64,000 nt of DNA from an uncultured virus (IMG/VR IMGVR_UViG_3300011991_000001) (taxonomy: Duplodnaviria > Heunggongvirae > Uroviricota > Caudoviricetes), in the IMG/VR virus record IMGVR_UViG_3300011991_000001; one strand, 5' to 3'. Positions 1,000 through 64,000 of the stretch are shown here, one piece after another. A program made the translations under genes and the position numbers. Position 1 is the first letter of the stretch; every line of letters begins with the position of its first letter. The notes under the pieces are model-generated. The model saw only the letters and a list, made by a program, of their open reading frames with translations. It had not been told where the DNA came from and ran no database searches.

Positions 1000-2022
1000 A
1001 TGGCAGAGATATCTATAGCGGAAAAGCTCCCGACAGTCACAGACGAACAATGGAATAAACTAAATAAATTCAATCGTAATATTACAGAAGAGTTTTTATT
1101 AGAATCGACAAACCTTAGTCCCAAGACACTAAGACAATATTTATCGGCATTGCACATTTTCTTTTTTTGGGTTTATGAACATTGCGATGATAAATCATTA
1201 TTAGAAATAAAAAGTAGAGACTTTTTAAAATATCAAAACTTCCTCGTGAGAAGAGGCATGTCTAGTTCAGGAGTAAGATTGAAACGTGCTGCAATAAGTT
1301 CCTTAAATGGGTATATTATTACATTTTATGAAGAGGAGTACCCTACTTTTAAGAACTTCATAACTAAGAAGATTTCTGCTCCACCTATTAATGATTTGCA
1401 TATAAAGCAACCAATGAATGCAGAAGAATGGGAACTACTCTTAAAAGATCTTGAAACTCGCAAACAATGGCAAAAATTAGCTTACTTAAAATTTACATAT
1501 TCAACAGCTTGTAGGAGAGCAGAGTCCAGACAACTCCTTAAAGAAGTTGTAGATTATCCTCCTATTATTAAGGAAAAGAAAATCAAGAATGATGATGGGA
1601 TAGAGGAAATTAAAACAATTACATTCTATGCTACTCAGGATACTCGTTGCAAAGGTAAAGGGGTTATTGGTGAGGTAAGAAAACTTAAATTTGATCAGTC
1701 TGCTATGGATGCTATTAGCAAATGGTTAGAAGTTCGAGGAGAAGATGATTGCCCTTATGTATTTGTTACAAAATCTCAAGGTGAATATCGTCAAGCAGGA
1801 GAAGGTTTATTTAATGATTGGTGTAAGGATGACTTTAGTAAAGTGATTAATAGAAGAGTCCATCCTCACCAACTTCGGGAGCAACGGGCGACTTGGCTAG
1901 TGGTTAATGAGGGTAAAGATATAAAATCGGCACAAGCTCTATTGGGACACAAATCATCCACAACTACTGAAATATATATTATTAGAGATGGGTCAGAGGA
2001 TGTAGAAGAAGCTTTTATTTAA
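1000..2022 (+). CDS. tyrosine recombinase/integrase (XerC/D-like, upstream of tail genes as in SPbeta-like phages)
   Basis: Catalytic motifs CRRAES, K, HPHQLR, LGH, TTEIY; N-terminal SAM-like core-binding domain. Confidence 0.92.
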   Translation: MAEISIAEKLPTVTDEQWNKLNKFNRNITEEFLLESTNLSPKTLRQYLSALHIFFFWVYEHCDDKSLLEIKSRDFLKYQNFLVRRGMSSSGVRLKRAAISSLNGYIITFYEEEYPTFKNFITKKISAPPINDLHIKQPMNAEEWELLLKDLETRKQWQKLAYLKFTYSTACRRAESRQLLKEVVDYPPIIKEKKIKNDDGIEEIKTITFYATQDTRCKGKGVIGEVRKLKFDQSAMDAISKWLEVRGEDDCPYVFVTKSQGEYRQAGEGLFNDWCKDDFSKVINRRVHPHQLREQRATWLVVNEGKDIKSAQALLGHKSSTTTEIYIIRDGSEDVEEAFI

Positions 2023-24142: not shown

Positions 24143-24345
24143 ACACATGATGCGACATAGATTTATATTTCACAATTTAGGATTGTATACTAATCTACAG
24201 TCCTAAAGTAAATTCTAATTCTCAATTAGACGGAAATAAAATAACTCTTTTATGGGATTTATAGTCTAGGAATATCGAGCATATGGAAGCATGCCGGAGT
24301 AAATGGAAGTTACAATATCTTACAATTTCATATATTGCTGTTTTA

Positions 24346-28461: not shown

Positions 28462-28550
28462 ATTAAAATCCTCCTTATTTCGTTTAAAACGTTCTTTTCA
28501 TTACATTACCATAATTCTATACAATAGACAAATGATTTATACATAAAAAA

Positions 28551-32940: not shown

Positions 32941-33162
32941 CTAATCTTCAAACATATCAAATTTGATCTCATTCACTGACTCAATCTTAACCTCTACTTC
33001 CTTAATTGCCTCTATATAAACATTCTCATCCTCTACCATTGCTATATCTTTCCCTTTGAAAAAGTAATCATACAAAGCTCTTCTAATAACTTTACTTCTT
33101 TTAGGCAAAGCATCTAATAATGGTGCTAGGATTTCATCGTCTCTGAATGTTCTAATCCCCAT
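32941..33162 (-). CDS. ParR-like ribbon-helix-helix adaptor
   Basis: IRTFR...RSKVIRRALYDYF; overlaps the end of parM-like gene. Confidence 0.65.
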   Translation of the reverse strand: MGIRTFRDDEILAPLLDALPKRSKVIRRALYDYFFKGKDIAMVEDENVYIEAIKEVEVKIESVNEIKFDMFED

Positions 33163-38768: not shown

Positions 38769-39191
38769 TTATTGTATAAACATGTTGCAGAGCAATTCTT
38801 TAACGTCCTCAATATCACCATCGCAGTAATGACTAATGCATGAATTAATATGTGGACTCCAATGCCTTCCTTGAGAGCCAAAAGCTATTACTGGTTTCCC
38901 TAATTCTTTAAATCTAACTAATTCAAAAATAGTTCCTGGACTATAGTCTATATCATCCAAATTAACAATCATCATATTACATTTATTAATATAGTAATTG
39001 TTTTGATCAACTACAATTTTACTATCATATGTATGATTCTTTTCTTTAAGAAATGTGATTGCAGGATTGAATGTCTTTACATCCTTTAAGTCATGTGCCC
39101 AATGATCTAATCTTTGTCTCCATTGAGTTCCTTTAATCATTTCATCATTTCGATGATAATAAGTTAATGCACCTCCAAGATAAATGTACAT
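38769..39191 (-). CDS. nucleoside 2-deoxyribosyltransferase-like protein
   Basis: IYLGG...WR...FNP...SPGTIFEL...KPVI motifs. Confidence 0.75.
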   Translation of the reverse strand: MYIYLGGALTYYHRNDEMIKGTQWRQRLDHWAHDLKDVKTFNPAITFLKEKNHTYDSKIVVDQNNYYINKCNMMIVNLDDIDYSPGTIFELVRFKELGKPVIAFGSQGRHWSPHINSCISHYCDGDIEDVKELLCNMFIQ

Positions 39192-39730
39192 TAAATACCT
39201 CCTTCAATAATCTCTACTAATTGAGCAACTTCATTCCATAAACTATATAAACCAGATTCAGACTTAACATAGTGATCAAACTTAAAATCATCTAGTCCTA
39301 TTTCACTTATATGATTTTGCTGTTCATATGTAAGTGGACTTTTAAAATCTTTTCTGCTAACTCTAATTGTTGTTACAGCGTCAGGAAACATTGCTTGGGT
39401 AAAATAGATTTCATTCTTCCTTCTCGCATCTGGTATAAAGAAATAATCATACTCTTTTTCTGCAATTTTAATGTCTTCACAAACCCTATTAACATGAAAA
39501 TTTTCCATGCCTAATTCTTCTCTTATTAAATCAGTTCCTACAAATTGTAATATTGACCTTCCCTTTTCATCCTTTTTACCATCCCAACCAAAAAACTTTT
39601 TTGCTATTAATTTTAAGTAGTCTGCATAGGACAGTTTAATAGATGTTCCTTTTAACTGTTGCATAAGAATATCAGCAGTTGAGTCTTTGCCATTCTGTGC
39701 CTTACCTGATACTATGATAATTTTTTTCAA
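39191..39730 (-). CDS. deoxynucleoside monophosphate kinase-like protein
   Basis: SGKAQNGKD, YAD.LK, R..LQ..GT, IPD.R..NE, H.SE..LD motifs. Confidence 0.8.
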   Translation of the reverse strand: MKKIIIVSGKAQNGKDSTADILMQQLKGTSIKLSYADYLKLIAKKFFGWDGKKDEKGRSILQFVGTDLIREELGMENFHVNRVCEDIKIAEKEYDYFFIPDARRKNEIYFTQAMFPDAVTTIRVSRKDFKSPLTYEQQNHISEIGLDDFKFDHYVKSESGLYSLWNEVAQLVEIIEGGI

Positions 39731-40913: not shown

Positions 40914-41280
40914 GAACTATTTAATACTGTAAAAATCCTGTGGTATCTGCTTCATATTCAATAAATTCAGCATCTTCTAAAGCTACTACTATTGTTTCGT
41001 CCATTACTCCAACCTCCTCATTATCAATTATATATAATTTACTATATGTAATCACTAAAGGATCGGTTACTGTCTCCATAATTTATCCTCCTATATTAAA
41101 TTAGAATTCATCGTATGCATCCCAAATCATACTTATAATATCTTGTTTTATTTCTTCTGTATCATAACCACAACCAAGTATACCTTCTTTTTCAATTTTT
41201 TTAACTAAGAATTCAACAAAACCTCTATCTCCTAAAGTCATTTTATTACTCCTTTCCGATAAAATTTATCTTTTGATGTA

Positions 41281-41595
41281 TTATTTATAAAACACATATT
41301 CAAATTCTGGACGGTTACAATCTTCCATATGCTTTCTAATATGTACTAAAACTAAGTCTCTAATTACTTCTCGTTTTACTCCTGCGTCATTGTGGTCATA
41401 ATCAATTAGATTGAAATTAATTTGGATATCACAGGTGAAACCTCTTTTAAACTGGTCAATAACTTCAGCACATGTCAAGATAAATTTATCTTCGGTTTCA
41501 TCAAAACCTTGGAATAGCTCAACTGTAAATCCTGTATCTCCAGTAGTGATACTAATACTTGAGACTTCTTTTATAAATATTTTATTTTTATACAT
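41281..41595 (-). CDS. hypothetical protein
   Basis: 104 aa ORF bounded by palindromic junction sites. Confidence 0.6.
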   Translation of the reverse strand: MYKNKIFIKEVSSISITTGDTGFTVELFQGFDETEDKFILTCAEVIDQFKRGFTCDIQINFNLIDYDHNDAGVKREVIRDLVLVHIRKHMEDCNRPEFEYVFYK

Positions 41596-41631
41596 TATCT
41601 TTTCCTTCTTTCTTAGCTTAAAATAGGTTTT

Positions 41632-41976
41632 TTATTTAATATTGTATTTTTTCTTAATGCTTATCAATTCTTTTTGATATTTCATATTGTTAACTGTCTC
41701 ATTATCGTCCAAGTCTTCTAATTTGATAATTTGCTGTTCTAAATTAAATCTCCTATTATTCACATTAGCTAATTCCTCTTTTAAAACTTGTTCATGTTGG
41801 GCATCTTCGCAATCACAATAATAAGTTAATTCTTCGTATCTACTATCACTGTCATAAGAACTCTCAAGAATTGCCTTATTACCACAGTATGAACAATATC
41901 GTATCTCTTCTATGGAATCCCAAATATTTTTGGGGAGCGCCATTTCCTTAAATGTAAATGTTCTCGTTTCAAACAT
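41632..41976 (-). CDS. hypothetical protein with CxxC/CxC zinc motif
   Basis: CSYCG...CDC followed by coiled coil. Confidence 0.6.
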   Translation of the reverse strand: MFETRTFTFKEMALPKNIWDSIEEIRYCSYCGNKAILESSYDSDSRYEELTYYCDCEDAQHEQVLKEELANVNNRRFNLEQQIIKLEDLDDNETVNNMKYQKELISIKKKYNIK

Positions 41977-42011
41977 TATAAAACATCCTTTCATAGCTTA
42001 AAATCATTATT

Positions 42012-42212
42012 TTAAATAGTTTCAATATTATCAAGAATATAATCAGCTAATTCATAGATAAAATTGGAATCAATCTCCTCAAAATCATCAGTTGTCATAG
42101 TTCCAAAGCCAAACGCTTCTTTAACTCGCGTTAAATTATAAACATATGTTCCATCTTTGGAATCCATATCAAAAAATTCATTTAATTTCTGTGCTATTTG
42201 TTCTCTATTCAT
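42012..42212 (-). CDS. hypothetical protein
   Basis: 66 aa ORF with GGAGG SD. Confidence 0.6.
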   Translation of the reverse strand: MNREQIAQKLNEFFDMDSKDGTYVYNLTRVKEAFGFGTMTTDDFEEIDSNFIYELADYILDNIETI

Positions 42213-42310
42213 AATTGTCCTCCTTCCCTTGAAATAAAGTTTTCATTGGTTTTATGTAGTTGAAAAACGTAGCATGAGCGAGTAAATGGAAGCATACAGG
42301 AGGTACTATT

Positions 42311-42640
42311 TTATACAACCTTAATAAATTCCATAATATCTAACATTGCATAAGTTCTTAAATCATTTTTACCTACGTCCCAAACATCCATTAACCATTG
42401 ATCTGTTTTGTGATATTCTGTATGTCCATACCACACACTTGCAGGGATAATTGTTCTGACTCCAACTTCACCTTTCCAATTCTTATATTTTACTTTGAGT
42501 GGGTTATCTGATGATTTAGTTTCTAGTTTATCTACTCTCACAATACTTTTCATGGATTCTCCGATTAAATTACCTGTACTTCTTGTGTACTTGCTTGCAT
42601 TAATGAGCATTTCTTTAAACATATCTTGACCACTTTTCAT
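42311..42640 (-). CDS. stand-alone WYL-like domain protein
   Basis: Y.NWKGE...R.I.P..V.YG......QWL...WD......RTY....I. Confidence 0.65.
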   Translation of the reverse strand: MKSGQDMFKEMLINASKYTRSTGNLIGESMKSIVRVDKLETKSSDNPLKVKYKNWKGEVGVRTIIPASVWYGHTEYHKTDQWLMDVWDVGKNDLRTYAMLDIMEFIKVV

Positions 42641-42676
42641 TATTTAACATCCTTCCTTTCCCTTAAAATTTTCGTT

Positions 42677-43165
42677 TTATTTGTTGGTGCTACCAAGACA
42701 ATTCATTCCTCTTTCTGATGTAATTAGCTTCAATTCCTCATAACTTTTTTCAATAACTTCTGTTTTAGGAACTGGAAGTAATACTACCTGAGCAATTGCT
42801 TTAGCATATGGATAAAGGATTATATTATCATTTTTGAAAAAATGAAATGTTTCCTTATAAATAAATAATCTTTTATTTGTTGTATTTGTTAAAGGAACAA
42901 ACCATTCATTGCGATAACCAGAGTCAATTACTCCACATCTTTGAGCGATTCCTTTTGTCCCTGTACTACCTCTCTCTTGTAATTGAAAGTAAAAATCAGG
43001 AGAACATGCACTTGCAATCCCAGTAGGAATCATCATTGTTGAATGTGGTTGAATTTCAATATAATCTTCCTCAAAGTTAGCATATACATCATACCCTGCA
43101 TTCTCAACATTCTTTGATGGAATAATTACACTAGGATTTACTTTAGCAAAATAGATAGTTTCCAT
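42677..43165 (-). CDS. dut: dUTPase (trimeric)
   Basis: AGYD, RGS, GVIDSGYR, IAQ, RG...GST motifs. Confidence 0.92.
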   Translation of the reverse strand: METIYFAKVNPSVIIPSKNVENAGYDVYANFEEDYIEIQPHSTMMIPTGIASACSPDFYFQLQERGSTGTKGIAQRCGVIDSGYRNEWFVPLTNTTNKRLFIYKETFHFFKNDNIILYPYAKAIAQVVLLPVPKTEVIEKSYEELKLITSERGMNCLGSTNK

Positions 43166-47082: not shown

Positions 47083-47238
47083 TTATTTTCCACTTTGAAT
47101 CCATGTATCTTCTTCACCATTTTCATGAATAGTCACTTCTGATTCACACATGATGCAAGAATATAAACTTATTTCATTAGTGCTCATACCTTCTGTAGAT
47201 TCTAATTCCATTTCTTCAAGGCAGTATTTACATTGCAT
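47083..47238 (-). CDS. small zinc-finger protein
   Basis: MQCKYC...YSCIMCES; GGAGGTG SD. Confidence 0.55.
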   Translation of the reverse strand: MQCKYCLEEMELESTEGMSTNEISLYSCIMCESEVTIHENGEEDTWIQSGK

Positions 47239-47407
47239 ATTGATCACCTCCTATAAAATTTGTTTTTTATGGGGTTTTGTGTTTTTGAAACCCTTGCTAT
47301 AAGCCACTTACAGAGGTGGGATATTTTGGAATTATATAAATTCACATGATTTTCGCCTTCTTTTCACTCAGAATTTTGTTTTGGTGCTGAATTACTTCCT
47401 GTATATT

Positions 47408-47436
47408 ATTGTACCATGTTGGGTATTATAAGTCAA
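47408..47436 (-). promoter_or_regulatory. sigmaA promoter
   Basis: TTGACT-N17-TACAAT with extended TG. Confidence 0.7.
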
Positions 47437-47455
47437 CTAAATTATATATTATTTG

Positions 47456-50682: not shown

Positions 50683-51789
50683 TTAACTAAATAAGTCTTC
50701 CCATTCATCATCTTTTTTTGTTGTGCCTAATTTTAACTTCTCATAGTATTCATGCAAATACTTACAGGTTTTCCGATGTCCGCACAAGTAAGAGCAGAAA
50801 AAGCTATCACCATCAATATTCATAGGTTTCCAGTCTGCTTCATTTGTAGAATCTTTACTAAGAATTTTCTCATGTGTATCCTTTACAAAATCCATAAACT
50901 CTTTTTTTGTCTCTTCACTAAATTCATACTCTAAAATACAATCTTCCAACCAATACTTATCTTGAATCTCCTTTGGTAAGTTTAATAAATTATTTTTCTT
51001 TACTGACTCTGTAAGTAGTAGATCAATTTCAAATTCCTTAATACCTAATCCTTCTAATTCCCTCTTTAGCATACTCTTAGTGGTTTTATATGTATTAGTC
51101 CCTTTTACTTTAGCCTGTTTATCAGTTCCTATTTCTTTAACCCATTTACCCCTATTAACCATCTTTTTATGGATCGTTCCATTCTTCATTTCCCAACAGA
51201 TGTTTAAGTATTTGAGCATATGCCATGCAATCTTATCAACTATATATTTGTCTTGTTTTGCAATTCCATATAGTACCAACTGTCTCCCTGCTCCAACTAA
51301 CTTCTTTTTGTCAAACTTACTACTTGTTTTAAAATCTATGATATCAATATGATTATCTTCATGTTTCTCAACCATATCAATATATCCTTGGATAAAAACT
51401 CCTGGCATTATTTCAAATATAAATCCTTCCTCAGTAACAAATTCCCCCTTCTCTGCTTTAAAATTCTTACTAAAATGTTTCATATCAGCTACCCAAGAAT
51501 TCCTGATTTTATCATTCATGAAGGTAACACCTAGCATATCTAGTTCTGAAAGGGTAGTTTTTAATGATTTAGTTAGGTTGACCTCTTTACCATTATATAT
51601 CATTTCTAGGTCGTTGTGTATATTACTTCCACAAATACTATAAATATTATCTATTCCTCTGTTTTTCAACACATATGTATTATAAAACCCATATTCGCAT
51701 TGCTTAAATGTATTTAATTTACTGAAACTATAAACTATATTACCATCTTCTACTAACTTTTTTACTATTGGTTCTAGTTCTCTAGCCAA
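50683..51789 (-). CDS. PD-(D/E)XK RecB-like exonuclease
   Basis: YSFSKLNTFKQC, GYID, IIDFKTS, QLVLY, C-terminal C...C....C; own SD plus TTG at 51789, in frame with primase. Confidence 0.8.
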   Translation of the reverse strand: MARELEPIVKKLVEDGNIVYSFSKLNTFKQCEYGFYNTYVLKNRGIDNIYSICGSNIHNDLEMIYNGKEVNLTKSLKTTLSELDMLGVTFMNDKIRNSWVADMKHFSKNFKAEKGEFVTEEGFIFEIMPGVFIQGYIDMVEKHEDNHIDIIDFKTSSKFDKKKLVGAGRQLVLYGIAKQDKYIVDKIAWHMLKYLNICWEMKNGTIHKKMVNRGKWVKEIGTDKQAKVKGTNTYKTTKSMLKRELEGLGIKEFEIDLLLTESVKKNNLLNLPKEIQDKYWLEDCILEYEFSEETKKEFMDFVKDTHEKILSKDSTNEADWKPMNIDGDSFFCSYLCGHRKTCKYLHEYYEKLKLGTTKKDDEWEDLFS

Positions 51790-52788
51790 ATTACATTCTC
51801 CTTTACCTAATTGAGATATTTTTTTATTATTTTTCAGGTCAAATAATGACATTTTAGAGTCTTTAGGTAAACATGAAGGATTAAAATATCCAATATCATA
51901 TTTTATGAAACTATTTTTAAACTTTTTACATTCAGTAATTATTTCACATTCCTCAATTCCTTCATCCCATGCAACAATAATTTTTTTTGGCATTAGTGAT
52001 TTGATCAATTGCACTTGTATAGAAGATATACTGTGACTACCTACAGAAACTACATTATTAATATTTAAACTTTTAGCAATCAGGCAACTCTTCTCGGCCT
52101 CGCAAATCCATACTGTTTGATTTACTATGTGTTCATAATTCTGACTGAATCCATATACACTATGTGACTTAGGAAATGGAATTACTGCTAAATATTTTGG
52201 TACTTCATTACTGATATTATCCTCGTTCAGCCTTCCAATAACTCCAATTAGTTTTCCTTCTGCGCTCCTCCAAGGTATTGTAATTCTTGATGTTTCTAAA
52301 TCAAATCCTATATCGAATTGTTTTTGGACATCAAAGGTAATGCCATCATCGAAAAATCTCATGTTAGGTTTATCCGCAAACTCCTTTAGGATATCTTCTG
52401 GATGAGTAACTATTTCTACGTCATTTATTGAATAATTATTAAGAATTTTTTTGTAGAATGCACCGAAAGGAAGATGAACTTTTTTATGAGGTATCAAATC
52501 TAAATTGAAATAATCGCTTATGTAATCAAGTGTGTATCTGAAGCTCAGTCCTCTATAAGATTGCAATAAAGATATGACATTTCCTCTAGTATTGGTACTG
52601 AAACACACATACCCCAGTGTCTCAGTATTAATTTTTATAGAAGTTGGGTTTCTTCCTATCTCTCTAGAACATCTAATCTCCTTTTTTGTTCTAATATAAT
52701 TGATATTTTCAAACCCAGAATCAGTTAATAGATCAATAATGTGCTCTTTATCCTCTTTTAGAAAGTCTTGAAGTGAAATTAAGTCCAT
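50683..52788 (-). CDS. DNA primase (Toprim), read in frame into downstream nuclease
   Basis: RITIPWR..G..IG..GR, KY, CEAEKS, IIVAWD in first ~330 aa. Confidence 0.8.
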   Translation of the reverse strand: MDLISLQDFLKEDKEHIIDLLTDSGFENINYIRTKKEIRCSREIGRNPTSIKINTETLGYVCFSTNTRGNVISLLQSYRGLSFRYTLDYISDYFNLDLIPHKKVHLPFGAFYKKILNNYSINDVEIVTHPEDILKEFADKPNMRFFDDGITFDVQKQFDIGFDLETSRITIPWRSAEGKLIGVIGRLNEDNISNEVPKYLAVIPFPKSHSVYGFSQNYEHIVNQTVWICEAEKSCLIAKSLNINNVVSVGSHSISSIQVQLIKSLMPKKIIVAWDEGIEECEIITECKKFKNSFIKYDIGYFNPSCLPKDSKMSLFDLKNNKKISQLGKGECNLARELEPIVKKLVEDGNIVYSFSKLNTFKQCEYGFYNTYVLKNRGIDNIYSICGSNIHNDLEMIYNGKEVNLTKSLKTTLSELDMLGVTFMNDKIRNSWVADMKHFSKNFKAEKGEFVTEEGFIFEIMPGVFIQGYIDMVEKHEDNHIDIIDFKTSSKFDKKKLVGAGRQLVLYGIAKQDKYIVDKIAWHMLKYLNICWEMKNGTIHKKMVNRGKWVKEIGTDKQAKVKGTNTYKTTKSMLKRELEGLGIKEFEIDLLLTESVKKNNLLNLPKEIQDKYWLEDCILEYEFSEETKKEFMDFVKDTHEKILSKDSTNEADWKPMNIDGDSFFCSYLCGHRKTCKYLHEYYEKLKLGTTKKDDEWEDLFS

Positions 52789-54817: not shown

Positions 54818-55915
54818 TTAACTAAGTGCTTCTACAATCTTTTTCAATCCTTCAGCCGATAGTTCTTCTGGAGATTTAAAGTTAGCAATGTCATATTTAG
54901 ACATGATCCCTCGGATGATTTCTTTTACTTCATCCTTTGCTTTTGGAAATTTTGCTTGAATAATAGTAATAAAACCTGCAACATCATCTTGTGCTAGTTC
55001 TTGCTGAATTTCTGCTTGTTCTTTCTTCCATGCAACATCTGCTGCACTAGCAATTTCTTTGACTTCAACTTTCTTTTTCTTTTCAATCTCTTTATCAGAA
55101 ACAGGAACTAACATTGAATTCTTAACACCTGTTTCAAATGCCAACATGAAGTTTTCTGCTGATAGTTCAAGTTTCTCAGGTAATCCTACGAACCTTCCTC
55201 CAGCATCAACTACAGATGTATTCCTAAAATACATCATTCTCTTTTCACTAACTTGTTTACCTTCAACAATTTCGCGCTCCATAGTAATATTAACTAACAT
55301 TTGTGATTTATCTGCAATGCTTCCGAAAAAGTCTGCACGTAAATTATTTGTAAGTTGTTCATAATCTTCACCAGTCATTACATCTTTAACAGTTTTTAAT
55401 TTTGTATGACAAAGAATAAAAACAGCATATCCAGCATTTCTAAGTCGTGCAATCTGCCCATTTACACCCTCAAGCAGTCTATCCCTTCCTCTTTGGAAAC
55501 CACCGAATGCGTCATTTAGAGACTTACATACAGTTCCTTTTTCTCGTTTATGTTGTCTAAGGACTTCGTTTGTTCCGATTTCGATCATTTCATCTAAGGT
55601 ATCTAAACAAACTGCCTTAACACCATTACTTTTTTTATTTTCAACAAGATCATCTACAGCTTCAACGAAACCCCTAGCTCCATTTTCATCCTCATCTGAA
55701 CTCCAATTAACAACACGTTCATATTGTAAATCATCTAAACTATGATAGCCTTCTTCATTACCGAAAGAAATTAATACCCCTGCATCAAGCGTCTTATAGT
55801 GAGTTAACAATAGTTTATAAAACAAGCTCGTTTTACCAATTTTTCTTTGACCCATAATGATATATGGAGGGTAAGAACCTAAATCTACTTTTACTGTATT
55901 GCGTTTAAATGCCAT
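54818..55915 (-). CDS. AAA_24-family ATPase (Sak4-like recombination protein)
   Basis: GQRKIGKTS, E.GY, VCLDT.D, LCH motifs. Confidence 0.8.
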   Translation of the reverse strand: MAFKRNTVKVDLGSYPPYIIMGQRKIGKTSLFYKLLLTHYKTLDAGVLISFGNEEGYHSLDDLQYERVVNWSSDEDENGARGFVEAVDDLVENKKSNGVKAVCLDTLDEMIEIGTNEVLRQHKREKGTVCKSLNDAFGGFQRGRDRLLEGVNGQIARLRNAGYAVFILCHTKLKTVKDVMTGEDYEQLTNNLRADFFGSIADKSQMLVNITMEREIVEGKQVSEKRMMYFRNTSVVDAGGRFVGLPEKLELSAENFMLAFETGVKNSMLVPVSDKEIEKKKKVEVKEIASAADVAWKKEQAEIQQELAQDDVAGFITIIQAKFPKAKDEVKEIIRGIMSKYDIANFKSPEELSAEGLKKIVEALS

Positions 55916-55988: not shown

Positions 55989-57092
55989 TTACGAGAATAG
56001 GTCGTCATCTTCATCTTCTACAATTGAATCAATATCAAATTTCGGTTCAGGTTCAACCTTTTTATCTTCTTTAGGTTCTTTAAATTTCTCAGTTTTTTCA
56101 ACAGGTTTAAAAATGTCTTCCTCAAACTCTTCAATCTTGAGTTCTGTATCCATAACTCCTTCAGAAAAAGCCCCAGTTAAAAGTGGTTTAATTAGACGAT
56201 ATTCAAAGATATTTCCACCAAGAGCATTTGATCTAGGTTTAAAACTTTCTGCTGTTGAAAGCCCAAATGCTACTGCTTCCCTTTGATCTTTAGTGAGCAT
56301 TGATTCATCCCATTCAACTTCATCTGCTCCCCTAAAGATAGACATCTGCCAAGGCATATGTACATAAGTCTTACCTTTTACTGTGATATACTTTTTCAAG
56401 AAATCAAATTTTGCAATATGTTTCTCATTTTCAAAGTCTAATTTCTTAGCACTAAGGATAAATTGTTGTGGCATGAATTTAGTCTTAATATCTTTATCAA
56501 TATATTGTGAAACATACCCTGTAAGGCGAAGAACTTTCTCCTCTTTAAAATCACTACTATCAAGTGAATCCTTAGAATAGAAAATATCCATACTTACTGA
56601 AAGTTTATTCTTCTCATCTTCCTTTGCAAATCGGATTGTTTGGATAATATATTTATCATTATAATTACCTTTGTAATATTCCTTCTTGACACTACCTATG
56701 ACTACTACTCTTTCAGTAATTGTTGGGAGCACTTTGCTAAGATGTTCAATCATGTCATATTCTGCAAGAAATTCTTTTGATTCTCCAAGATCAGCTTTGA
56801 ACTTCTTAAAATCAGCAACCATTTTTAATGTTTCCGTATCTTCACGATCTTTCCAAGGGATTTCAATTTTACTATTATCTAAATCCATTGAGAAGATTCT
56901 ACCTTTACCATCTGCTTGGTATCCACCGAATAGTTCTACGAAAACTCCATTATGATCTGATTCTTTCACCATAAAATTAACTCTTGAAGATACCCATGTT
57001 TCCTTTTTATTCAAGAATGTATTATGAAATTTCTCTTTATCCTTTGCAATTCCTAAAGCCCCAATGAATACAAATTTACTATAAAACGCCAT
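55989..57092 (-). CDS. putative single-stranded DNA-binding protein
   Basis: Beta-rich, acidic C-terminus EDEDDDLFS, first gene of replication operon. Confidence 0.65.
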   Translation of the reverse strand: MAFYSKFVFIGALGIAKDKEKFHNTFLNKKETWVSSRVNFMVKESDHNGVFVELFGGYQADGKGRIFSMDLDNSKIEIPWKDREDTETLKMVADFKKFKADLGESKEFLAEYDMIEHLSKVLPTITERVVVIGSVKKEYYKGNYNDKYIIQTIRFAKEDEKNKLSVSMDIFYSKDSLDSSDFKEEKVLRLTGYVSQYIDKDIKTKFMPQQFILSAKKLDFENEKHIAKFDFLKKYITVKGKTYVHMPWQMSIFRGADEVEWDESMLTKDQREAVAFGLSTAESFKPRSNALGGNIFEYRLIKPLLTGAFSEGVMDTELKIEEFEEDIFKPVEKTEKFKEPKEDKKVEPEPKFDIDSIVEDEDDDLFS

Positions 57093-57749: not shown

Positions 57750-57781
57750 TTATCTATCTCCTTTCCATTAAAACTTCTTTT

Positions 57782-57997
57782 TTATACTAAACTAACTTCC
57801 AATATTCGTAATAAGTCACTATATAACTCATTACTTTCTGCAACTTTCATAGGGTATTTACAATATTCATTTTTAGCTATCTCAGATATTTTTGCAAAAT
57901 GTATATCGCCAACAGCAACCATTATTGTATTTAATTCACTTTTTGTAAATTCAATAGTATACATTGTTTCAATATTTTCCTCTTTAATAAGTTTCAT
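57782..57997 (-). CDS. hypothetical protein
   Basis: 71 aa, similar to 58837..59013. Confidence 0.6.
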   Translation of the reverse strand: MKLIKEENIETMYTIEFTKSELNTIMVAVGDIHFAKISEIAKNEYCKYPMKVAESNELYSDLLRILEVSLV

Positions 57998-58030
57998 ATT
58001 ATATTCTCCCTCCCGAATAAAATCTTAAAT

Positions 58031-58402
58031 TTATTCCCAAATATATTCTTTAACATGATTTAGCGTTTTAAGATAACTCCTCACAAATAATCTCATTTTA
58101 CAATATTCAATAGGATTTTTCATAATCATTCCGATACCATCAAACTCAATAATATAAGCATGTAATTGTGAATCAGTTTCACTGTCAAACAAACTTGTTT
58201 TAAATATATTATCTTGCTTCCAATTACGTCTACAAAACTCTTCCATAAAAATTTTGTAACTTGCTCTCCCATATTTTTTACGGCTCTTAGTCATGCTAAT
58301 GTGTGACCCATAATCAAAAAGTATGAAAGCGATTCCCATGATAACTCCAGTAATAATTAATGACATGATAGATGACAAAAGCCATATTAAACTTATACTC
58401 AT
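58031..58402 (-). CDS. hypothetical membrane protein
   Basis: N-terminal hydrophobic helix. Confidence 0.6.
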   Translation of the reverse strand: MSISLIWLLSSIMSLIITGVIMGIAFILFDYGSHISMTKSRKKYGRASYKIFMEEFCRRNWKQDNIFKTSLFDSETDSQLHAYIIEFDGIGMIMKNPIEYCKMRLFVRSYLKTLNHVKEYIWE

Positions 58403-58430
58403 ATTTTTAACTTCCTTTCAAATAATTGGT

Positions 58431-58712
58431 TTATTGTATTTCTAATACTAATAACTTTTCTTCAAGCAATACTTTTCTGTCTTCTTTCCCTACAATATAA
58501 TTAACGCAATTAATAATTTTTAAAAGTTCTTCTCCGTTACCATATCCAAGTCTAACAATACCACTTGAATTACTATTATTATATTTAATCTTTCTATCAA
58601 GAAATGTTACATCATTACCAGCAATATTTATCCACCCTATGATATCCTCTCCAATTTTATCTCCTAATGAATACTTTCTGATTCCTAATAATTCAATGCT
58701 TTCTACTTCCAT
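58431..58712 (-). CDS. hypothetical protein
   Basis: 93 aa ORF. Confidence 0.5.
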   Translation of the reverse strand: MEVESIELLGIRKYSLGDKIGEDIIGWINIAGNDVTFLDRKIKYNNSNSSGIVRLGYGNGEELLKIINCVNYIVGKEDRKVLLEEKLLVLEIQ

Positions 58713-58836
58713 TTACATTAAAACCTCTTTTCTTATAATATTCTCCTTTGAAATGAAACTTTCATGGCAATTACCATTGAGCAAAACAGAGCATTTAGAA
58801 GCAAACGTTAGTATGTAAAAGTTGCGACAATTCAAT

Positions 58837-59013
58837 CTACTTAACTTCATAATTAAAGAAGTCATACAAATCAATAATATCTCCAGTTTCTACATCCTCT
58901 ATTTTATCTTCAAACTTATAAGAACCTAAAGCAATTTTAATAATCAATACTTCTTTTTCAGTTAGTCTAATATCGTATTCTGTCGTGGTTACTGTTTTAT
59001 CAATTAATTCCAT
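58837..59013 (-). CDS. hypothetical protein (58 aa, below ORF track cutoff)
   Basis: MELIDKTVTTTEYDIRLTEKEVLIIKIALG...; GGGGAG SD. Confidence 0.55.
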   Translation of the reverse strand: MELIDKTVTTTEYDIRLTEKEVLIIKIALGSYKFEDKIEDVETGDIIDLYDFFNYEVK

Positions 59014-59015
59014 AT

Positions 59016-59654
59016 TTAATATCTCCCCTTATCTTGATTTTCTCGTGCTCTTTCATATGCAACTGTAAATCCAAATTCCTTGCTATATGTATCTAGTGGA
59101 TCACATCTTGATACGCCTTTATAATGTTTGCCTACTGTTTTAATGAGTACGATTGTCTCACTACGATGATAAATTACTTCAATGATTTCTCTGGTTGTAG
59201 TTGTTGGAATACTTAAATGTTTAGTAAGTGTTTCTGATTCTTCTTTAGTTAAATCAACTGACATACTCCTAATATCTAATGCACTTGTTAGACGATTAAT
59301 TTCTAATACCACTTCATCAGTCTTGTCATTCACTAATTTTATACTTGTAACATCACTAATTATGTATTGTTTTGGTTTGGGATTAAATCCATCAAATTCT
59401 ACCATGTTGTGATTGTATTCTTGACTATAACCCAAAGATCCATATTGCATTTCATTACCAAAACAATAATAGCATGTGCCTTCTCTATAAATAGTCCAAT
59501 TATTCTTAGTTAATTCAATACCAGTAATCCAAGTCATTCCTTCTCCATGACAATACGTTAAAAGTTCTCTCGCCAATTCTTCTGTTTTACAGTTTATAAC
59601 TAACTCATCCCTTTTAAATTTAGTCCAATGTTTTTCTAAATTAAACTTTTCCAT
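59016..59654 (-). CDS. hypothetical phage protein
   Basis: INCKTEE.A...L...G.TW..G N-terminus; C-terminal GVSRC.P.D.Y....G...A..RA motif. Confidence 0.7.
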   Translation of the reverse strand: MEKFNLEKHWTKFKRDELVINCKTEELARELLTYCHGEGMTWITGIELTKNNWTIYREGTCYYCFGNEMQYGSLGYSQEYNHNMVEFDGFNPKPKQYIISDVTSIKLVNDKTDEVVLEINRLTSALDIRSMSVDLTKEESETLTKHLSIPTTTTREIIEVIYHRSETIVLIKTVGKHYKGVSRCDPLDTYSKEFGFTVAYERARENQDKGRY

Positions 59655-59713
59655 ATTATATCCTTCTTTCTTTCATTTTTTATACGTTAAAACTAATTTT
59701 TCCAAAGGGTAGT

Positions 59714-60082
59714 TTATTTAAATACTTTCTTCATTTCGCCTCTAACAATCTCAGCAACTAAATCCTTCAATCCACTTTTGATCACACTATCTGCAACCAC
59801 TTCTCCATTGGATTGTAATTCTTTGTATTGTTTAGTCCTTTCAAATTTCTTAACCAAATTATCTGTAACTTTTGTGGCAACTGTATTTTTGAAATCTGTA
59901 TCCATAATTATCTCTAGTTTTGATATGACTCTTTGTTCTAGTTTTTCATAGAGATCAGTTTTACTCCAAGTGTCCCCTAAAACTTGACCAATAAAAAGAA
60001 CAGCTACTTTATTAAGTATTTCGTTTTCTAAATCATAAATATCATCGCTTTCATTTGTGTCTACTGTGAAATTTAATTTCAT
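59714..60082 (-). CDS. hypothetical protein
   Basis: 122 aa ORF with GGAGG SD. Confidence 0.6.
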   Translation of the reverse strand: MKLNFTVDTNESDDIYDLENEILNKVAVLFIGQVLGDTWSKTDLYEKLEQRVISKLEIIMDTDFKNTVATKVTDNLVKKFERTKQYKELQSNGEVVADSVIKSGLKDLVAEIVRGEMKKVFK

Positions 60083-60138
60083 TATGTATTTCCTCCTTCC
60101 CTTCGAAAATAATCTTTCCTCGTCTTATGTATAATAAC

Positions 60139-60167
60139 ATTATATATCATTAGTAATATAGAGTCAA
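60139..60167 (-). promoter_or_regulatory. sigmaA promoter
   Basis: TTGACT-N17-TATAAT. Confidence 0.75.
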
Positions 60168-60170
60168 GGA

Positions 60171-60368
60171 TTATTTATGGTCTTCTTTAGTTTTATTTGG
60201 TTTTGAATAAGTGCTCATTAATAAAAATGTAGCTATACATAAATGTGTTACACCTGAACCAAATGCCGATGGCGTAAAATATCCTAACAATATTACAATA
60301 GAATCTATAACATAAATGATGCCCGTTAGTTTCATACTAATATTAATTATCTTTTCAAACCTACTCAT
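60171..60368 (-). CDS. small two-TM membrane protein
   Basis: 65 aa with two hydrophobic helices. Confidence 0.6.
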   Translation of the reverse strand: MSRFEKIINISMKLTGIIYVIDSIVILLGYFTPSAFGSGVTHLCIATFLLMSTYSKPNKTKEDHK

Positions 60369-60624
60369 GTATTTCTCCTTTCATATTAGCTTCAAAATTA
60401 TGATTTATGGGGCTAATATTACTTCCCTATTAATATCTTTAGAAATTCCATTATACTTGGAACGTGGTATCTCTCATCATTATCTTTTTTTAATTGATTT
60501 GCCACATCAATTACATCTTCAGGAGAGGCTTCTTTAACAATTGAGTGATAACCTATCATGTTTAAATAGTTACTTGCTTCTTTATAATCCATAATCTCTC
60601 CTTCCCTTTAAAACATGAGTTTTC

Positions 60625-60852
60625 TTAGGATATAATCCATATTTTATTTTGTGTCTCTACTCTCATAGCTGTTTTATTAAGATATTCAATACCAATAACC
60701 ATCTCATGACCAAAACATGAACCAACTTCATATCTTATTGATAGTGGTTTTCCTATCTCAATTACAGATTTATTCATATTCAATGGTTTATGTAAATATT
60801 GAGGGCAACAGTTAATATCAGCTTTCTTATTTTTGATTGAAATGAATTCCAT
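60625..60852 (-). CDS. hypothetical protein
   Basis: 75 aa ORF with AAGGAG SD. Confidence 0.55.
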   Translation of the reverse strand: MEFISIKNKKADINCCPQYLHKPLNMNKSVIEIGKPLSIRYEVGSCFGHEMVIGIEYLNKTAMRVETQNKIWIIS

Positions 60853-60879
60853 AATAATTACTCCTTTAAAATTCTCTGT

Positions 60880-61773
60880 TTATTGTACTTTAGACATATA
60901 TTTCTCTACATCATCATCTAGATCACTTCTTTTTCTTTTAGTCACAATTATTTCTACTAAGTTGCGTTTCTCATCAACACTCCATAAATTCCAATAAAAC
61001 TTACCATCAATGTCATTTCGTTTCTTTGCAATTCTATATGGAGGTCTGTCTTGTATATAACTTTTATAACCTTCAGTAGTCCACCAAATTATTTTATTAT
61101 ATCTATCTTCTGTGAAAAACTCTTGTATCTTATACCAATCATCTAAACTACCCATATGCTTGTGACTGTTACAACTTCGACATGACGGAACACAATTTCT
61201 CAAATCATTATAACCATTATCATCGACATGTTCTTTATGAAAATTCATAAACACTGACTTACCTTTTCTGATTATAATATGGTCTTCCATTGGTAATCCA
61301 CAATAAGCACACTTGTAATCAAACGCCTTTAGACATGCTTTCCACTCTGCTTCAGAGATTTCATGATTTCTATGATTTAACCCATATGTAAGTTGTTTAC
61401 CTTTATTTTCTTCTCTTTTATACCATCCTTTAAGATAGTTACTGAGATAGTCTTTATACCTTACCCTACTTCTAGCTATCTTTTTATGTTTCTCATTGTC
61501 CTCTTCTCTATTAGTTTTACGGTATTCATAACTATACTTTATATAGTCTTCTTTATTCTCTTCTCTATGTTCATTAGCATTTATTCGTGTACAGCTTCTA
61601 CATCGAGGGGTGAATCCCATTTCAGGTTTAGACTTATTTTGCATATAAAAGTTATCCGTATTTTCTTCTAGCCAATTTGAACATTGAGTGCATCGTCTTT
61701 CTACGATTTTATTGTCGTTTATTCTATGGTTTATTCTACTTTGTTCACGGGAACCTATGCTTTTAGTAGTCAA
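60880..61773 (-). CDS. HNH endonuclease
   Basis: N-terminal CTQC..CRSC, CAYCG...EHV...N...NCVPSCRSCN..K; likely TTG start after AAGGAG. Confidence 0.85.
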   Translation of the reverse strand: MTTKSIGSREQSRINHRINDNKIVERRCTQCSNWLEENTDNFYMQNKSKPEMGFTPRCRSCTRINANEHREENKEDYIKYSYEYRKTNREEDNEKHKKIARSRVRYKDYLSNYLKGWYKREENKGKQLTYGLNHRNHEISEAEWKACLKAFDYKCAYCGLPMEDHIIIRKGKSVFMNFHKEHVDDNGYNDLRNCVPSCRSCNSHKHMGSLDDWYKIQEFFTEDRYNKIIWWTTEGYKSYIQDRPPYRIAKKRNDIDGKFYWNLWSVDEKRNLVEIIVTKRKRSDLDDDVEKYMSKVQ

Positions 61774-61805
61774 TTTTACTCCTTTCTCCATATGAAATCA
61801 GTTTT

Positions 61806-62039
61806 TTATTTGGTTAAAAAATCTTCTAATTCCTTACTACAAAAAGGACAATATTCAATTTTGGCAACATGTCTTAAACCTGTCCAATCATATTCTGAGT
61901 CAAAATCAATAACAAACATATGCCAACCAGAATTTCTAAGTAAATATCTATCTGGTTTTGAGAAATGTCTTATTGAACATCTATTATCAAGCAACCCTTG
62001 ACAACGATGAGCATCGTCATATGTATCATATAAATTCAT
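61806..62039 (-). CDS. hypothetical protein with CPFC motif
   Basis: I.YCPFC...L. Confidence 0.6.
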   Translation of the reverse strand: MNLYDTYDDAHRCQGLLDNRCSIRHFSKPDRYLLRNSGWHMFVIDFDSEYDWTGLRHVAKIEYCPFCSKELEDFLTK

Positions 62040-62071
62040 TATTATTATTCATCTCCCTTGAAAGGTTAATT

Positions 62072-62302
62072 TTAACGATTATCACAACCACCTTTGCACA
62101 ATGAACAGTATTTTTTCATCGCCCTGAAACTGCATTTACTTGTGGGGTGATTACAAGGAGTTCTTTTTATCATAGCATTTAACAGTAAATGAATTTTATT
62201 ATATGCTCCATAAAATATATTACTTGGACTATAGCATTTTTTAGCATTGCAACCGATATTTTTATCTTTATATTTACACTTATCACAATTAATATAATTC
62301 AC
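62072..62302 (-). CDS. Cys-rich hypothetical protein
   Basis: Multiple CxxC motifs; AGGAG SD before GTG62302. Confidence 0.5.
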   Translation of the reverse strand: MNYINCDKCKYKDKNIGCNAKKCYSPSNIFYGAYNKIHLLLNAMIKRTPCNHPTSKCSFRAMKKYCSLCKGGCDNR

Positions 62303-62344
62303 AAATTCACTCCTTCCTCTTTCTAATACCATCAAAGATCAGTT

Positions 62345-62749
62345 CTATAGGGATTCTATTTTTCTTTTTTCATTTTCTTCTTCTACAATCTTAAAGAATT
62401 CACTACCTTTAATTTCTTCAAATCCTTCTGGATTACTAAAATCATGTTCACCTTCAAATGAACAATAAACCGTATCACCAATATTAAATAACCTGTTTCT
62501 TGTTTTTCCATAACCCCTATCAAAATAGAATTGAATAAATGGTTTATGAGTAGGAGCAATTTGTTTTTCTTCTAATAAATCAACCCATGCTTTATTTATT
62601 TTTGAAGTTTTCTTAAATGCCATTAATCCGTTATCTACAGGTTTACATAGTATTTTGCCAAACTTTTCTAAGTCTTTTTCAGTTGGGACTATGTAAAAAG
62701 CTGAGTTTGAACAATAATATGAATGCGTATCTATTTCATATTTATCCAT
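62345..62749 (-). CDS. hypothetical protein
   Basis: 134 aa ORF ending EEIKGSEFFKIVE. Confidence 0.55.
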   Translation of the reverse strand: MDKYEIDTHSYYCSNSAFYIVPTEKDLEKFGKILCKPVDNGLMAFKKTSKINKAWVDLLEEKQIAPTHKPFIQFYFDRGYGKTRNRLFNIGDTVYCSFEGEHDFSNPEGFEEIKGSEFFKIVEEENEKRKIESL

Positions 62750-63489
62750 AAAATCCTTAGAAATTATGTTTATTTTTCCTCATTGTTCTTATGAGTAAAA
62801 TAGTCTTTATGAAGCTTTGATTGTTCCGTTACAATAAAATACTTTTCCATTTAATATGTCCTTCTTCCTAAATTTATTTATATTAGCATAAAATCTAGTT
62901 TTCGATGTATTACTTATCTATTAAATTAATAGCACTTCCTTGTGGTTTGTCTGAACAAACTCTCAATTTCCCAGGAATTAAACCTTGAAGCATTTCGAAC
63001 ACATCTACTTGCTCTTTAGTCATTGCTACTGGATATAAGGTATCATCTTTTATGTAAAATAAAGCTAAACCATCTTTCACTTTCTTCATCCTTTCTTAAT
63101 AGCATCAAAGCCAGATTTTATATTATCTATTTACATTTTATATAAACAGGGCACTTAATTATGTTATCATTCCCAAAACCATCTCCAAACTCAATTCCAT
63201 AGTGATTTTCTCCACAACCATCACAAGTAGGTATCTCAAAGACGCAAGTATCACATAAATTAATTTTTGTATCAATCATAGTATCATCTCCCTTCAACTA
63301 TTCAATTTATCTTCTTTCCAATGGCAATGTACTTTAATCTAATTTTAATTCTATGAAGAACATTTTTAAGTGATAATTCATCCTTATGGCAATTCATTTT
63401 CTCCTTAAATTCATCTGGCACTTGAGTAGTCATTATTTCTTTTTGGAAATCCATCAAATAACTCTCCTTTCCAACATAAAATGTATCTT

Positions 63490-63663
63490 TTAAAGTAACT
63501 CCATCCTAAACTTAATACCTTCTCCAACATACTTATTATATTGATCCATCAACTCATATCCATCTAGTGCGTCAATAATTACATCAGTCATCGTATCATT
63601 GTTTACCTCTACAGCCATTCCTAATAATGCATATAATAATAATTGTTCATGTATTTTATCCAT
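63490..63663 (-). CDS. hypothetical protein (57 aa)
   Basis: MDKIHEQLLLYALLG...; AAAGGA SD, stop overlaps junction palindrome. Confidence 0.45.
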   Translation of the reverse strand: MDKIHEQLLLYALLGMAVEVNNDTMTDVIIDALDGYELMDQYNKYVGEGIKFRMELL

Positions 63664-63694
63664 TTTTAATTCCTTTCCAAATAAAATGTTCTTT

Positions 63695-63937
63695 TTATCG
63701 TACTAGCATATTCATGAATACTTCTTGATTATTATTTTCATATATTGAAGATACAATTAGTTTGCTTTCTTTATGTAATCCCAATCTCTTTTTGTTAAAC
63801 TCCGGCAAAGGATATTCATCACCAATTTTCCATAGTTCTTTCATTTCTTCTAGACAAGAATTTACAAATTGGAAACACACACATGTATTATCAGAATTCT
63901 CTTTTGCTAAATCTATACCTATTACATAATTATTCAT
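63695..63937 (-). CDS. hypothetical protein
   Basis: GGAGG SD before ATG63937. Confidence 0.55.
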   Translation of the reverse strand: MNNYVIGIDLAKENSDNTCVCFQFVNSCLEEMKELWKIGDEYPLPEFNKKRLGLHKESKLIVSSIYENNNQEVFMNMLVR

Positions 63938-64000
63938 ATCGTTCCCTCCTCCCACGAAACCATAATTTCATAGTATGTATTATTTATATTGAATAACCCA

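Follow-up and report, generated by a model that had tools for sequence, protein, structure and literature searches.

A dyad element with a variable 6-bp core at accessory gene junctions of a large A/T-rich phage

We analysed a 64,000-nucleotide stretch of DNA from an uncultured tailed virus (IMG/VR IMGVR_UViG_3300011991_000001; Caudoviricetes), referred to below as the window, which comes from a large phage whose G+C content is 30%. Between the small accessory genes of this window we found an interrupted palindrome, TRAAA-N6-TTTYA, which was confirmed to be a genuine junction element with a fixed geometry. Comparison with related phages indicated that 16-bp islands with private 6-bp cores keep both their sequence and their order in two phages that have unrelated genes between the islands, and that the sites are seams of module exchange. 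On the same comparisons, the anatomy of the site is like that of dif/pdif sites, its apparent behaviour is like the shuffling mediated by the PeSLs (early promoter and stem-loop cassettes) of T4-type phages, and the arrays are not integrons. A Xer-like recombinase and short-homology recombination are both candidate mechanisms for the crossovers.

Enrichment and placement of the motif

The original prediction had listed 12 sites between 57769 and 63970, and all 12 were found at those coordinates and with those letters. Six of them fit the strict consensus TRAAA-N6-TTTYA, and the other six were off at one or two of the ten arm positions (arm matches are given below as, for example, 9/10). The strict motif occurred 15 times in the whole window versus 3.42 ± 1.96 times (maximum 9) in 100 dinucleotide shuffles, none of which reached 15. 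Upon scanning the spacing over the window and a 7,791-nt extension (71.8 kb), we found 17 matches at N6 and 1 to 6 at each of the remaining spacings between 0 and 15. Within the 4,052 nt of intergenic DNA that separates the minus-strand genes (60 segments), there were 14 strict copies versus a mean of 0.20 (maximum 3) in 2,000 composition-matched shuffles that kept the stop codon, and enrichment was confined to N6, with 0 or 1 copy at all other spacings; the enrichment over a matched background that had been suggested as a check was thus obtained at the junctions. Strict copies were absent from the coding DNA (37,281 nt). When 70 upstream regions were scanned without bias for 4-mer dyads, TAAA-N6-ATTT came out at the top (14 versus 1.29 expected).

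A looser pattern that covered all 12 listed sites had no maximum at N6 when the sequence was taken as a whole (35 at N6, 38 at N4) and peaked at N6 only beyond 57000 (19 versus 2 to 9). Because this pattern was unenriched overall, half of the listed examples are degenerate copies that can be recognised by context only. Five further sites, at 59688, 60104, 60392, 60609 and 62889, were absent from the earlier list.

The minus strand carries genes from 37.4 kb onward, and the listed junction sites lie there in a long array of small, function-unassigned genes upstream of the replication module. By hand count, a 9-10/10 match stood at 23 of the 46 same-strand junctions with a gap of at least 25 nt, 13 of these 23 being only 25-36 nt long. 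Among the tighter junctions (gap <25 nt, replisome ones included), 0 of 23 had such a match, which agrees with the earlier remark that the replisome junctions lack sites; these genes are without a site because they are tightly packed. The extended form of the pattern described below occurred 8 times in the 71.8 kb of the phage and 12 times in a 3.8-Mb Clostridiaceae genome bin, with 2 of the 12 on a phage-like contig. The site is thus about 40-fold denser in the phage than in this candidate host bin, which implies a phage-specific factor or process. The bin includes one contig related to the phage, and this membership hints at a host in the Clostridiaceae.

Anatomy of the site

The anatomy was derived from 67 non-redundant sites of five phages. 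On the gene strand, on which all cores are given here, the order was upstream gene, site, 0-22 nt, Shine-Dalgarno (SD) sequence and start codon, with 11-38 nt between the site and the start codon. The upstream stop codon lay at motif position 1 in 20 sites, upstream of the motif in 35 and after position 1 in 3, and no upstream open reading frame (ORF) was found for 9. The earlier statement that one arm usually supplies the stop codon held for 9 of the 12 sites first listed, but in the wider set only for 20 of the 67. The site is a free-standing element and no by-product of a stop codon next to an SD sequence.

Beyond the 16-mer, the sequence logo showed C/A at -3 and -2, W at 0, A at 11, W at 17, G/T at 19-20 and A at 21. 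The dyad symmetry reached from -4 to +21, with a mean correlation between mirrored columns of 0.655 in register and at most 0.39 at nine other shifts. The extended consensus YMMNW-TRAAA-N6-TTTYA-WNKKR is therefore a 10-6-10 dyad of about 26 bp, of which the 16-mer is the inner part; the inner arms carry 0.6-1.6 bits and the outer arms 0.3-0.8 bits per position. Among the strong sites of the window phage, all cores differed from one another except for a gctaca pair that flanks an inserted HNH endonuclease gene. Although the site is nearly symmetric, its asymmetric features (the A at position 11, present in 38 of the 67 sites, and the adjoining SD sequence) all pointed with transcription, and the orientation was constant in this respect, which suggests that the sites stand in direct orientation to one another.

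Covariation between the arms was absent, as positions 2 and 15 paired in 33 of the 67 sites versus 35.0 in shuffles. Each half fits the consensus independently, as expected of two inverted protein subunits that read double-stranded DNA. An RNA hairpin was rejected as an explanation of the dyad; a forced 5-bp stem averaged +1.0 kcal/mol.

Collinear cores in related phages

The same motif was present in relatives. Strict N6 matches numbered 6 in L006 (0-3 at other spacings), 4 in L003 (0-3) and 4 in L013 (0-2), and the 176-kb gut phage MT835469.1, whose DNA polymerase is 46% identical, had 17 versus 1-7 elsewhere. The arms shifted jointly between lineages, being mainly TAAAA/TTTTA in the window and TGAAA/TTTCA in MT835469.1, where position 2 was G in 10 of 17 sites and position 15 was C in 15 of 17. 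L014 had no strict N6 match and seven sites at 9/10. We found no N6 peak in Lactococcus phage phiL47 (5 at N6, 5 at N0) and no clear one in Bacillus phage pW2 (4 at N6 versus 0-4 elsewhere), three of whose four matches were followed by an SD sequence and ATG.

L006, together with its extension L020, shared 87% nucleotide identity with the window phage across the replication genes (6.9 kb) and had few accessory-array genes in common with it. Outside the homologous blocks, 21-22 pairs of sites had identical cores, and 15-16 of these pairs formed one collinear chain, versus a mean of 3.5 and a maximum of 7 with random cores and 3 with the order reversed; this result is significant for the window-L006 pair alone. 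In these landmark pairs, identity was 89-100% at positions 3-14 and fell outside the 16-mer to the background level (29% at -4 to 0 and 32% at 17 to 21); position 15 agreed in 3 of 15 pairs. Credible core pairs with one mismatch beside perfect ones numbered only 2. The genes between the landmarks had no positional counterpart, even in blastp at E up to 5, and differed in number and length.

Eight of the collinear sites lie in the window, all on the minus strand. These are 62889..62904 (CGAAA-actaga-TTTTA, 9/10; core at L006:3380), 62059..62074 (TAAAA-ttaacc-TTTCA; L006:5551), 61793..61808 (TAAAA-aactga-TTTCA; L006:6446), 60867..60882 (TAAAC-agagaa-TTTTA; L006:6691), 60392..60407 (TAAAT-cataat-TTTGA, 8/10; L006:7071 and L013:6276), 60104..60119 (GGAAA-gattat-TTTCG, 8/10; L006:7332), 58749..58764 (TGAAA-gtttca-TTTCA; L006:7583 and L013:6608) and 57769..57784 (core aagaag; L006:9005 and L013:9545, with unrelated flanks). 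Arm 1 supplies the stop codon of the HNH endonuclease gene at 60867 and of 57782-57997 at 57769. The site at 58749 is free-standing in a 124-nt gap, and its arm 1 does not serve as a stop codon; that at 60104 lies in a leader, downstream of a sigma-A-like promoter at 60167-60139.

A third lineage, L034, had the cores ttatgg and gataca in common with the window phage and ggaaca and ttttac in common with L006, and the genes between them were unrelated. In the window, ttatgg and gataca occur on the minus strand at 63955..63970 (TGAAA-ttatgg-TTTCG; L034:12080, with unrelated genes on both sides) and 63477..63492 (TAAAA-gataca-TTTTA; an identical 16-mer with other flanks at L034:12535). Genes did not keep to one core. 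The methylase-like gene of L013 and its homologue at 67929-68666 stood at different addresses with different cores, and the free-standing HNH endonuclease gene at 60880..61773 (minus strand), which lies between the cores aactga and agagaa, had a 34% identical homologue in L006 one address further upstream. The original prediction of a cassette-shuffling system therefore stands in that exchanged modules are bounded by sites in relatives, but not in its view of the cassette, because the core is not the cassette's own site.

The polymerase of L006 (L006:17944-20502), beside the 87%-identical replication genes, was only 34% identical and was shorter (852 aa). A core gene has thus been replaced as well.

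Breakpoints at the sites

Homology between the window phage and L006 ended at the last base of site 63682, at 3 nt after site 57769 and, beyond the window, inside a site after position 11. Variant contigs from one sequencing run branched 3 nt outside site 60867 and 2 nt outside site 63105. One insertion had its breakpoints in the core itself. L006 reads TAAAA-gctaca-TTTGA, and the window phage reads TAAAA-gctaca-ACTTA, 582 nt and ATATA-gctaca-TTTCA, with homologous outer flanks, so that the core and one further base recur as a direct repeat (7-bp AGCTACA) on the two sides of the insertion, with hybrid arms. The insert corresponds to L021:10724-11311 (about 69.8-70.3 kb, beyond the window) and carries a 165-aa HNH_3 endonuclease gene; it was absent in L006 and 97.6% identical in L034. 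This was the one event found by a strict search for split sites across genomes, and a lenient search within the genome yielded noise only. A weak joint, 60154>60621, was present in a contig of run X2; it skips 466 nt with two small genes (60171-60368 and 60419-60592) and ends inside an arm of site 60609. The shorter side of the joint has only 25 letters, and the contig was placed at 85% likeness.

Proposed exchange and candidate enzymes

Taken together, a symmetric double-stranded DNA site with private, conserved cores, located at module seams and unlinked to promoters, is best matched by the core site of a recombinase. Our leading reading, held tentatively and at somewhat less than even chances, is a dif/pdif-type recombinase core at which modules could be exchanged by same-core crossover through a phage Xer-like recombinase. 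A phage-specific protein would probably read the dyad of about 26 bp as two inverted half-sites. Among the junctions of the early and accessory operons that offer enough room, about half have one copy each, placed after the stop codon and before the ribosome-binding site. Related phages would exchange gene modules at these seams, with the crossover occurring inside the site between copies of the same core. The core would act as an address, and gene order would thereby be kept. Tyrosine recombinases require identical overlap sequences, which would make each core an address and would explain both the collinearity and the conservation of the cores. We infer the protein binding, the crossover inside the site and the enzyme, of which the enzyme is the least certain.

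In its most specific form, this reading becomes address-coded site-specific recombination, in which each genome would carry about 40 dif-like sites with common arms and private 6-bp overlaps, and only equivalent junctions of co-infecting or resident relatives would join. We consider this form rather doubtful. If true, nature would have its own version of the recombinase-mediated cassette exchange that uses heterospecific sites, with accessory genes freely interchangeable and the order and operon structure kept. More generally, it is debated whether the seams of phage mosaics lie at gene borders through selection on random joints or through sequence-guided exchange, and the islands shared by the window phage and L006 provide a concrete, testable case of seams that are marked in the DNA. 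If a recombinase reads the sites, they would reveal a new way in which nature exchanges genes in order and would supply a ready set of orthogonal sites.

The likeliest enzyme would be a phage Xer-like tyrosine recombinase, and the original prediction had named the 340-aa protein at 1000..2022 (plus strand) as a candidate. Its gene belongs to the other strand block, some 56 kb away from the array, and the protein scored 77.6 bits against XerC (cut-off 335), 60.1 against XerD (330) and 30.1 against the integron integrase TIGR02249 (265). A 350-aa protein with a MrpR-type recombinase core-binding domain is encoded in the upstream extension of the phage (L021:6799-7851), directly after the second of two DndB-like genes, and MT835469.1 had three Xer-like recombinase matches above the Pfam cut-off. 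A candidate for short-homology recombination is the Sak4-like single-strand annealing protein (AAA_24) at 54818..55915 (minus strand).

Several observations weigh against a dedicated recombinase. The ends of the homology blocks were scattered relative to the motif (+11, +16, +19, about +25 and +33) with no fixed point, and the HNH_3 insert may have arrived by its own route or through its 7-bp microhomology. Two other indels in the same arrays had their breakpoints in SD repeats of 7-10 bp. L006 lacks the 51-aa gene at 47083-47238, the breakpoints lying in the SD direct repeat AGGAGGTGA, and an extra gene of L006 (L006:9041-9328) follows the aagaag site through an SD repeat and has a downstream junction without a site. 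The expectation that breakpoints in aligned relatives would fall in the 6-bp core was thus borne out by the gctaca insertion, but not by these two. Given the SD-repeat indels and the scattered block ends, the sites are frequent seams and not the sole ones, and the crossover point is not fixed. Contigs assembled from four DNA runs of one study, in which rare forms are dropped, contained no circles, no recombination product and no joint at any site, leading back or otherwise, apart from the weak one that touches site 60609.

The symmetry and the candidate enzyme also leave doubts. In the sites of MT835469.1, symmetry was visible only out to positions 0 and 17, and the inner arms are 5 bp of A/T flanked by weak outer arms. 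The recombinase at 1000-2022 remained far under the cut-offs of the XerC, XerD and IntI families, and no site scoring at least 13 adjoins its gene. The other core chains were within the largest null value (window-L013, 6; window-L034, 4; L006-L013, 4; L006-L034, 4). The pairs were chosen by their identical cores, so that the core conservation is partly a product of selection. A search of open-access papers and preprints for dif-like sites in phage genomes revealed no description of such arrays, and one for the motif strings returned only an unrelated paper on an archaeal regulator. To our knowledge, such a system has no precedent in phages.

Comparison with known systems

Sites of the pdif type are 28 bp long, have distinct XerC and XerD arms, depend on the host Xer system and bound modules that alternate in orientation. 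The sites of Acinetobacter plasmids are described as having an 11-6-11 layout in which the inner arm parts are palindromic and conserved and the outer parts and the 6-bp centre are variable (PMC6449649). The phage sites share the inverted arms, the variable 6-bp centre and the conserved inner parts, and like the pdif sites described there they flank accessory modules that differ between related replicons (PMC6449649). In contrast, the phage sites are A/T-rich, have nearly equal arms and all point one way, and they are carried by a phage as candidate recombination sites.

Heterospecific spacer variants of lox and FRT have the same arms and different spacers, recombine only with their own kind and are used in engineered cassette exchange by Cre or FLP. 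With two such sites that differ, the DNA between them can be replaced and the order stays, which is the logic proposed for the phage sites. That use is engineered, whereas the recombinase of the phage sites is only a candidate, and we know of no natural array of this type.

The PeSLs of T4-type phages are described as composites that join a strong early promoter of the sigma-70-like type to a terminator stem-loop, located at junctions of non-essential ORFs in hyperplastic regions, whose near-identical copies recombine and yield mini-circles (PMC2839356, PMC4122927). The likeness is that of a short, conserved junction motif among small genes that bounds indels and replacements between relatives and has been proposed to drive shuffling. 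The phage site here differs from PeSLs as they are described there in having no promoter or stable hairpin; it is a 16-26-bp dyad with a private core, and only equivalent junctions match. Relaxed homologous recombination by phage Rad52-like recombinases has likewise been proposed to drive mosaicism (PMC3945230). That process differs in that no special site is needed, and the junction motif would serve only as a stretch of identity.

Alternative explanations

The main rival, an idea that the original prediction had offered as its alternative, is an operator of a dimeric phage DNA-binding protein on early operons, for example a roadblock or timing switch, which would double as short homology for Sak4-like or host RecA recombination with no dedicated recombinase. 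We judge this a real possibility, and an operator reading of the PeSL type ranked almost as likely as the recombinase site. A 5-6-5 dyad whose half-site centres lie one helical turn apart suits helix-turn-helix dimers, and all sites are oriented alike relative to transcription. The phage encodes the Sak4-like annealing protein, the SD-repeat indels show that microhomology events occur in the same arrays, and the scatter of the block ends around the site is in keeping with such events. Regulatory PeSL cassettes are known to mediate modular shuffling in hyperplastic regions (PMC2839356, PMC4122927). The sites were, however, untied to promoters, and most lie within operons in 25-36-nt gaps with no obvious repressor target. 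On the side of short homology, each crossover would rest on only 12-16 bp of identity, and the better preservation of the cores compared with the degenerate arm positions, such as position 15, would be left unexplained. If regulatory sites are used as short homology, the PeSL principle would extend from T4-type phages of Gram-negative hosts to large phages of low-GC Gram-positive hosts.

A sigma-70-type promoter was rejected as the nature of the site. The logo contained no -35/-10 information, positions -24 to -5 were uninformative, and sigma-70-like matches numbered 113 versus 108.8 in shuffles. Neither promoter-like nor terminator-like matches near the sites exceeded shuffles. As regards a promoter for a phage RNA polymerase, the profile PF00940 had no match in MT835469.1, although its control matched nowhere either, and the sole other trace was a sub-threshold Sigma70_r2 match. 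The CcpA cre site (N4 spacing), the ComK AT-boxes (A4-N5-T4) and the CodY, IHF, sigma-54 and T7-type promoter sites presumably differ from the element in spacing or sequence.

It is improbable that the element acts at the RNA level, as a processing site, a translational operator or enhancer, or a termination-reinitiation spacer in the polycistronic mRNA. Such a role would fit a site that always lies between the stop codon and the SD sequence on the transcribed strand with a constant orientation relative to the genes, and sites 47254 and 60104 lie downstream of sigma-A-like promoters and are hence transcribed. The hairpin is unstable, however, and the arms do not covary; the mirrored position preferences and the joint shift of both arms are unexpected for a single-stranded RNA motif, and the distances to the stop and start codons both vary. 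An Rfam search gave no family at the sites and one sub-threshold match within a gene (salivarius-1 at 60695-60749, E = 0.065).

Marginally less probable still is the target of a dimeric phage endonuclease that cuts in the 6-bp core, whose breaks or core-specific overhangs would promote repair from, or ligation to, the equivalent junction of a relative infecting the same cell. Palindromes interrupted by an unspecified centre are well known as targets of dimeric nucleases, the arrays contain several HNH endonuclease genes and an ATP-dependent DNA ligase gene, and one insertion has a direct repeat of the core, as from a staggered cut. This evidence comes down to the single gctaca event, since HNH and ligase genes are common in large phages and little informative; no candidate nuclease is linked to the sites, and self-cutting at about 40 places would demand protection.

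A true integron, with an IntI-type integrase that captures cassettes each made of one ORF and its attC-like site, is very improbable. An attC site is a long imperfect palindrome, from tens of bases to about 140, that acts as a folded single strand, travels with its cassette and needs IntI. The arrays do resemble integrons in their small same-direction genes, each with a palindrome at its 3' end, and thereby recall cassette capture and reshuffling; integron parts have been reported in phages (PMC9892861). The resemblance ends at three defining features, because there is no attC, the site does not travel with the gene and there is no IntI. The element of 16-26 bp sits in junctions that are mostly 25-36 nt long, and homologous genes occur at different addresses with different cores, as with the methylase-like gene above. 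The integron-like character claimed earlier did not hold, given these short junctions, cores that stay while genes change and an integrase score of 30 bits against a cut-off of 265.

Chance or composition, an A/T-rich stop context next to A/T-rich DNA before the SD sequence, can be dismissed, since an arm 1 that starts with TAA or TGA and the flat count of the loose pattern, which are what it would account for, are outweighed by 14 intergenic copies versus 0.20, the enrichment at N6 only, the free-standing copies and the presence of the motif in relatives.

Further sites of the phage

The remaining sites of the main array are on the minus strand. They comprise 58018..58033 (TAAAT-ttaaga-TTTTA, 9/10), 58418..58433 (TAAAC-caatta-TTTGA, 8/10; one mismatch to cgatta at L006:8123), 59688..59703 (GGAAA-aattag-TTTTA, 9/10), 60609..60624 (GAAAA-ctcatg-TTTTA, 9/10), 62332..62347 (TAGAA-ctgatc-TTTGA, 8/10), 63105..63120 (TAAAA-tctggc-TTTGA, with the upstream stop codon 8 nt before the site) and 63682..63697 (TAAAA-agaaca-TTTTA; the core is ggaaca in L006 and L034).

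The best-scoring site, CCCCA-TAAAA-aacaaa-TTTTA-TAGGA at 47254..47269 (minus strand), is free-standing within the leader of a sigma-A-like promoter (47436-47408), at about 130 nt. L006 keeps the site with an identical core and an A-to-G change in one arm. A gap of 217 nt follows the polymerase gene and contains this promoter and, just before the site, a GGGTTT...AAACCC inverted repeat, and the region 47270-47455 is conserved in L006. A second cluster of five sites (41260, 41619, 41999, 42230 and 42664; 41260..42679, minus strand) lies between small genes near the dUTPase and ribonucleotide reductase genes. A free-standing site at 28485..28500 (minus strand) precedes a DndB-like gene, and a lone intergenic site at 24237..24252 (plus strand) lies in the plus-strand structural block.

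Other features of the phage

Two IMG/VR contigs represent the same phage at 99.99% identity and continue past base 64000, and further loci lengthen the phage sequence by about 17 kb in total. CheckV gave a completeness of 29% for a 43-kb contig of the same phage (G001), and the genome size is therefore probably about 150 kb. A megablast search of the window against the phage collection gave no match. The window encodes a 2,075-aa tape-measure protein, a PolIII-alpha-type polymerase, a primase, a DnaB-like helicase, a ribonucleotide reductase and a dUTPase, together with the tyrosine recombinase and two systems for partition, of the actin-like and the ParA kind. Their genes, 33126-34019 for an actin-like (ALP/ParM-type) protein and 34376-35245 for a ParA-type ATPase, are divergent, and the presence of both with the recombinase suggests a plasmid-prophage lifestyle.

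In the replication module, 50683-52788 is a single 701-aa primase-exonuclease ORF in the window, and all four contig sets lack one base at 51806. L006, L007 and L011 have two genes (337 and 368 aa) at this position, and an assembly error probably accounts for the fusion, with a frameshift site as the other explanation. The module is headed by a conserved 367-aa protein (55989-57092) that ends in an acidic tail and has no Pfam or PHROG match. Acidic C-terminal tails are frequent in single-strand-binding proteins, and this may be one.

A cluster for DNA modification and nucleotide metabolism is located at 38769-39730 and 42677-43165 in the window and, beyond it, at L021:12402-13139 and L021:14059-14670. 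Its members are an N6/N4 methylase, a Mom-like protein, a nucleoside 2-deoxyribosyltransferase, a dNMP kinase and a dUTPase, and the phage DNA may contain modified bases. Just past the window, the 425-aa ATP-dependent DNA ligase (L002:6159-7436, about 64.4-65.6 kb) lies in the middle of the accessory array and is kept at 73-75% identity in L006/L020 and L034. The upstream extension beyond the window (L021:1211-7851) encodes a protein with a MazF/PemK-like domain, a homologue of AgrB, which acts in quorum-sensing peptide processing, and the second DndB-like protein. The two DndB-like proteins are distant paralogues, with 22% identity (E = 4e-7).

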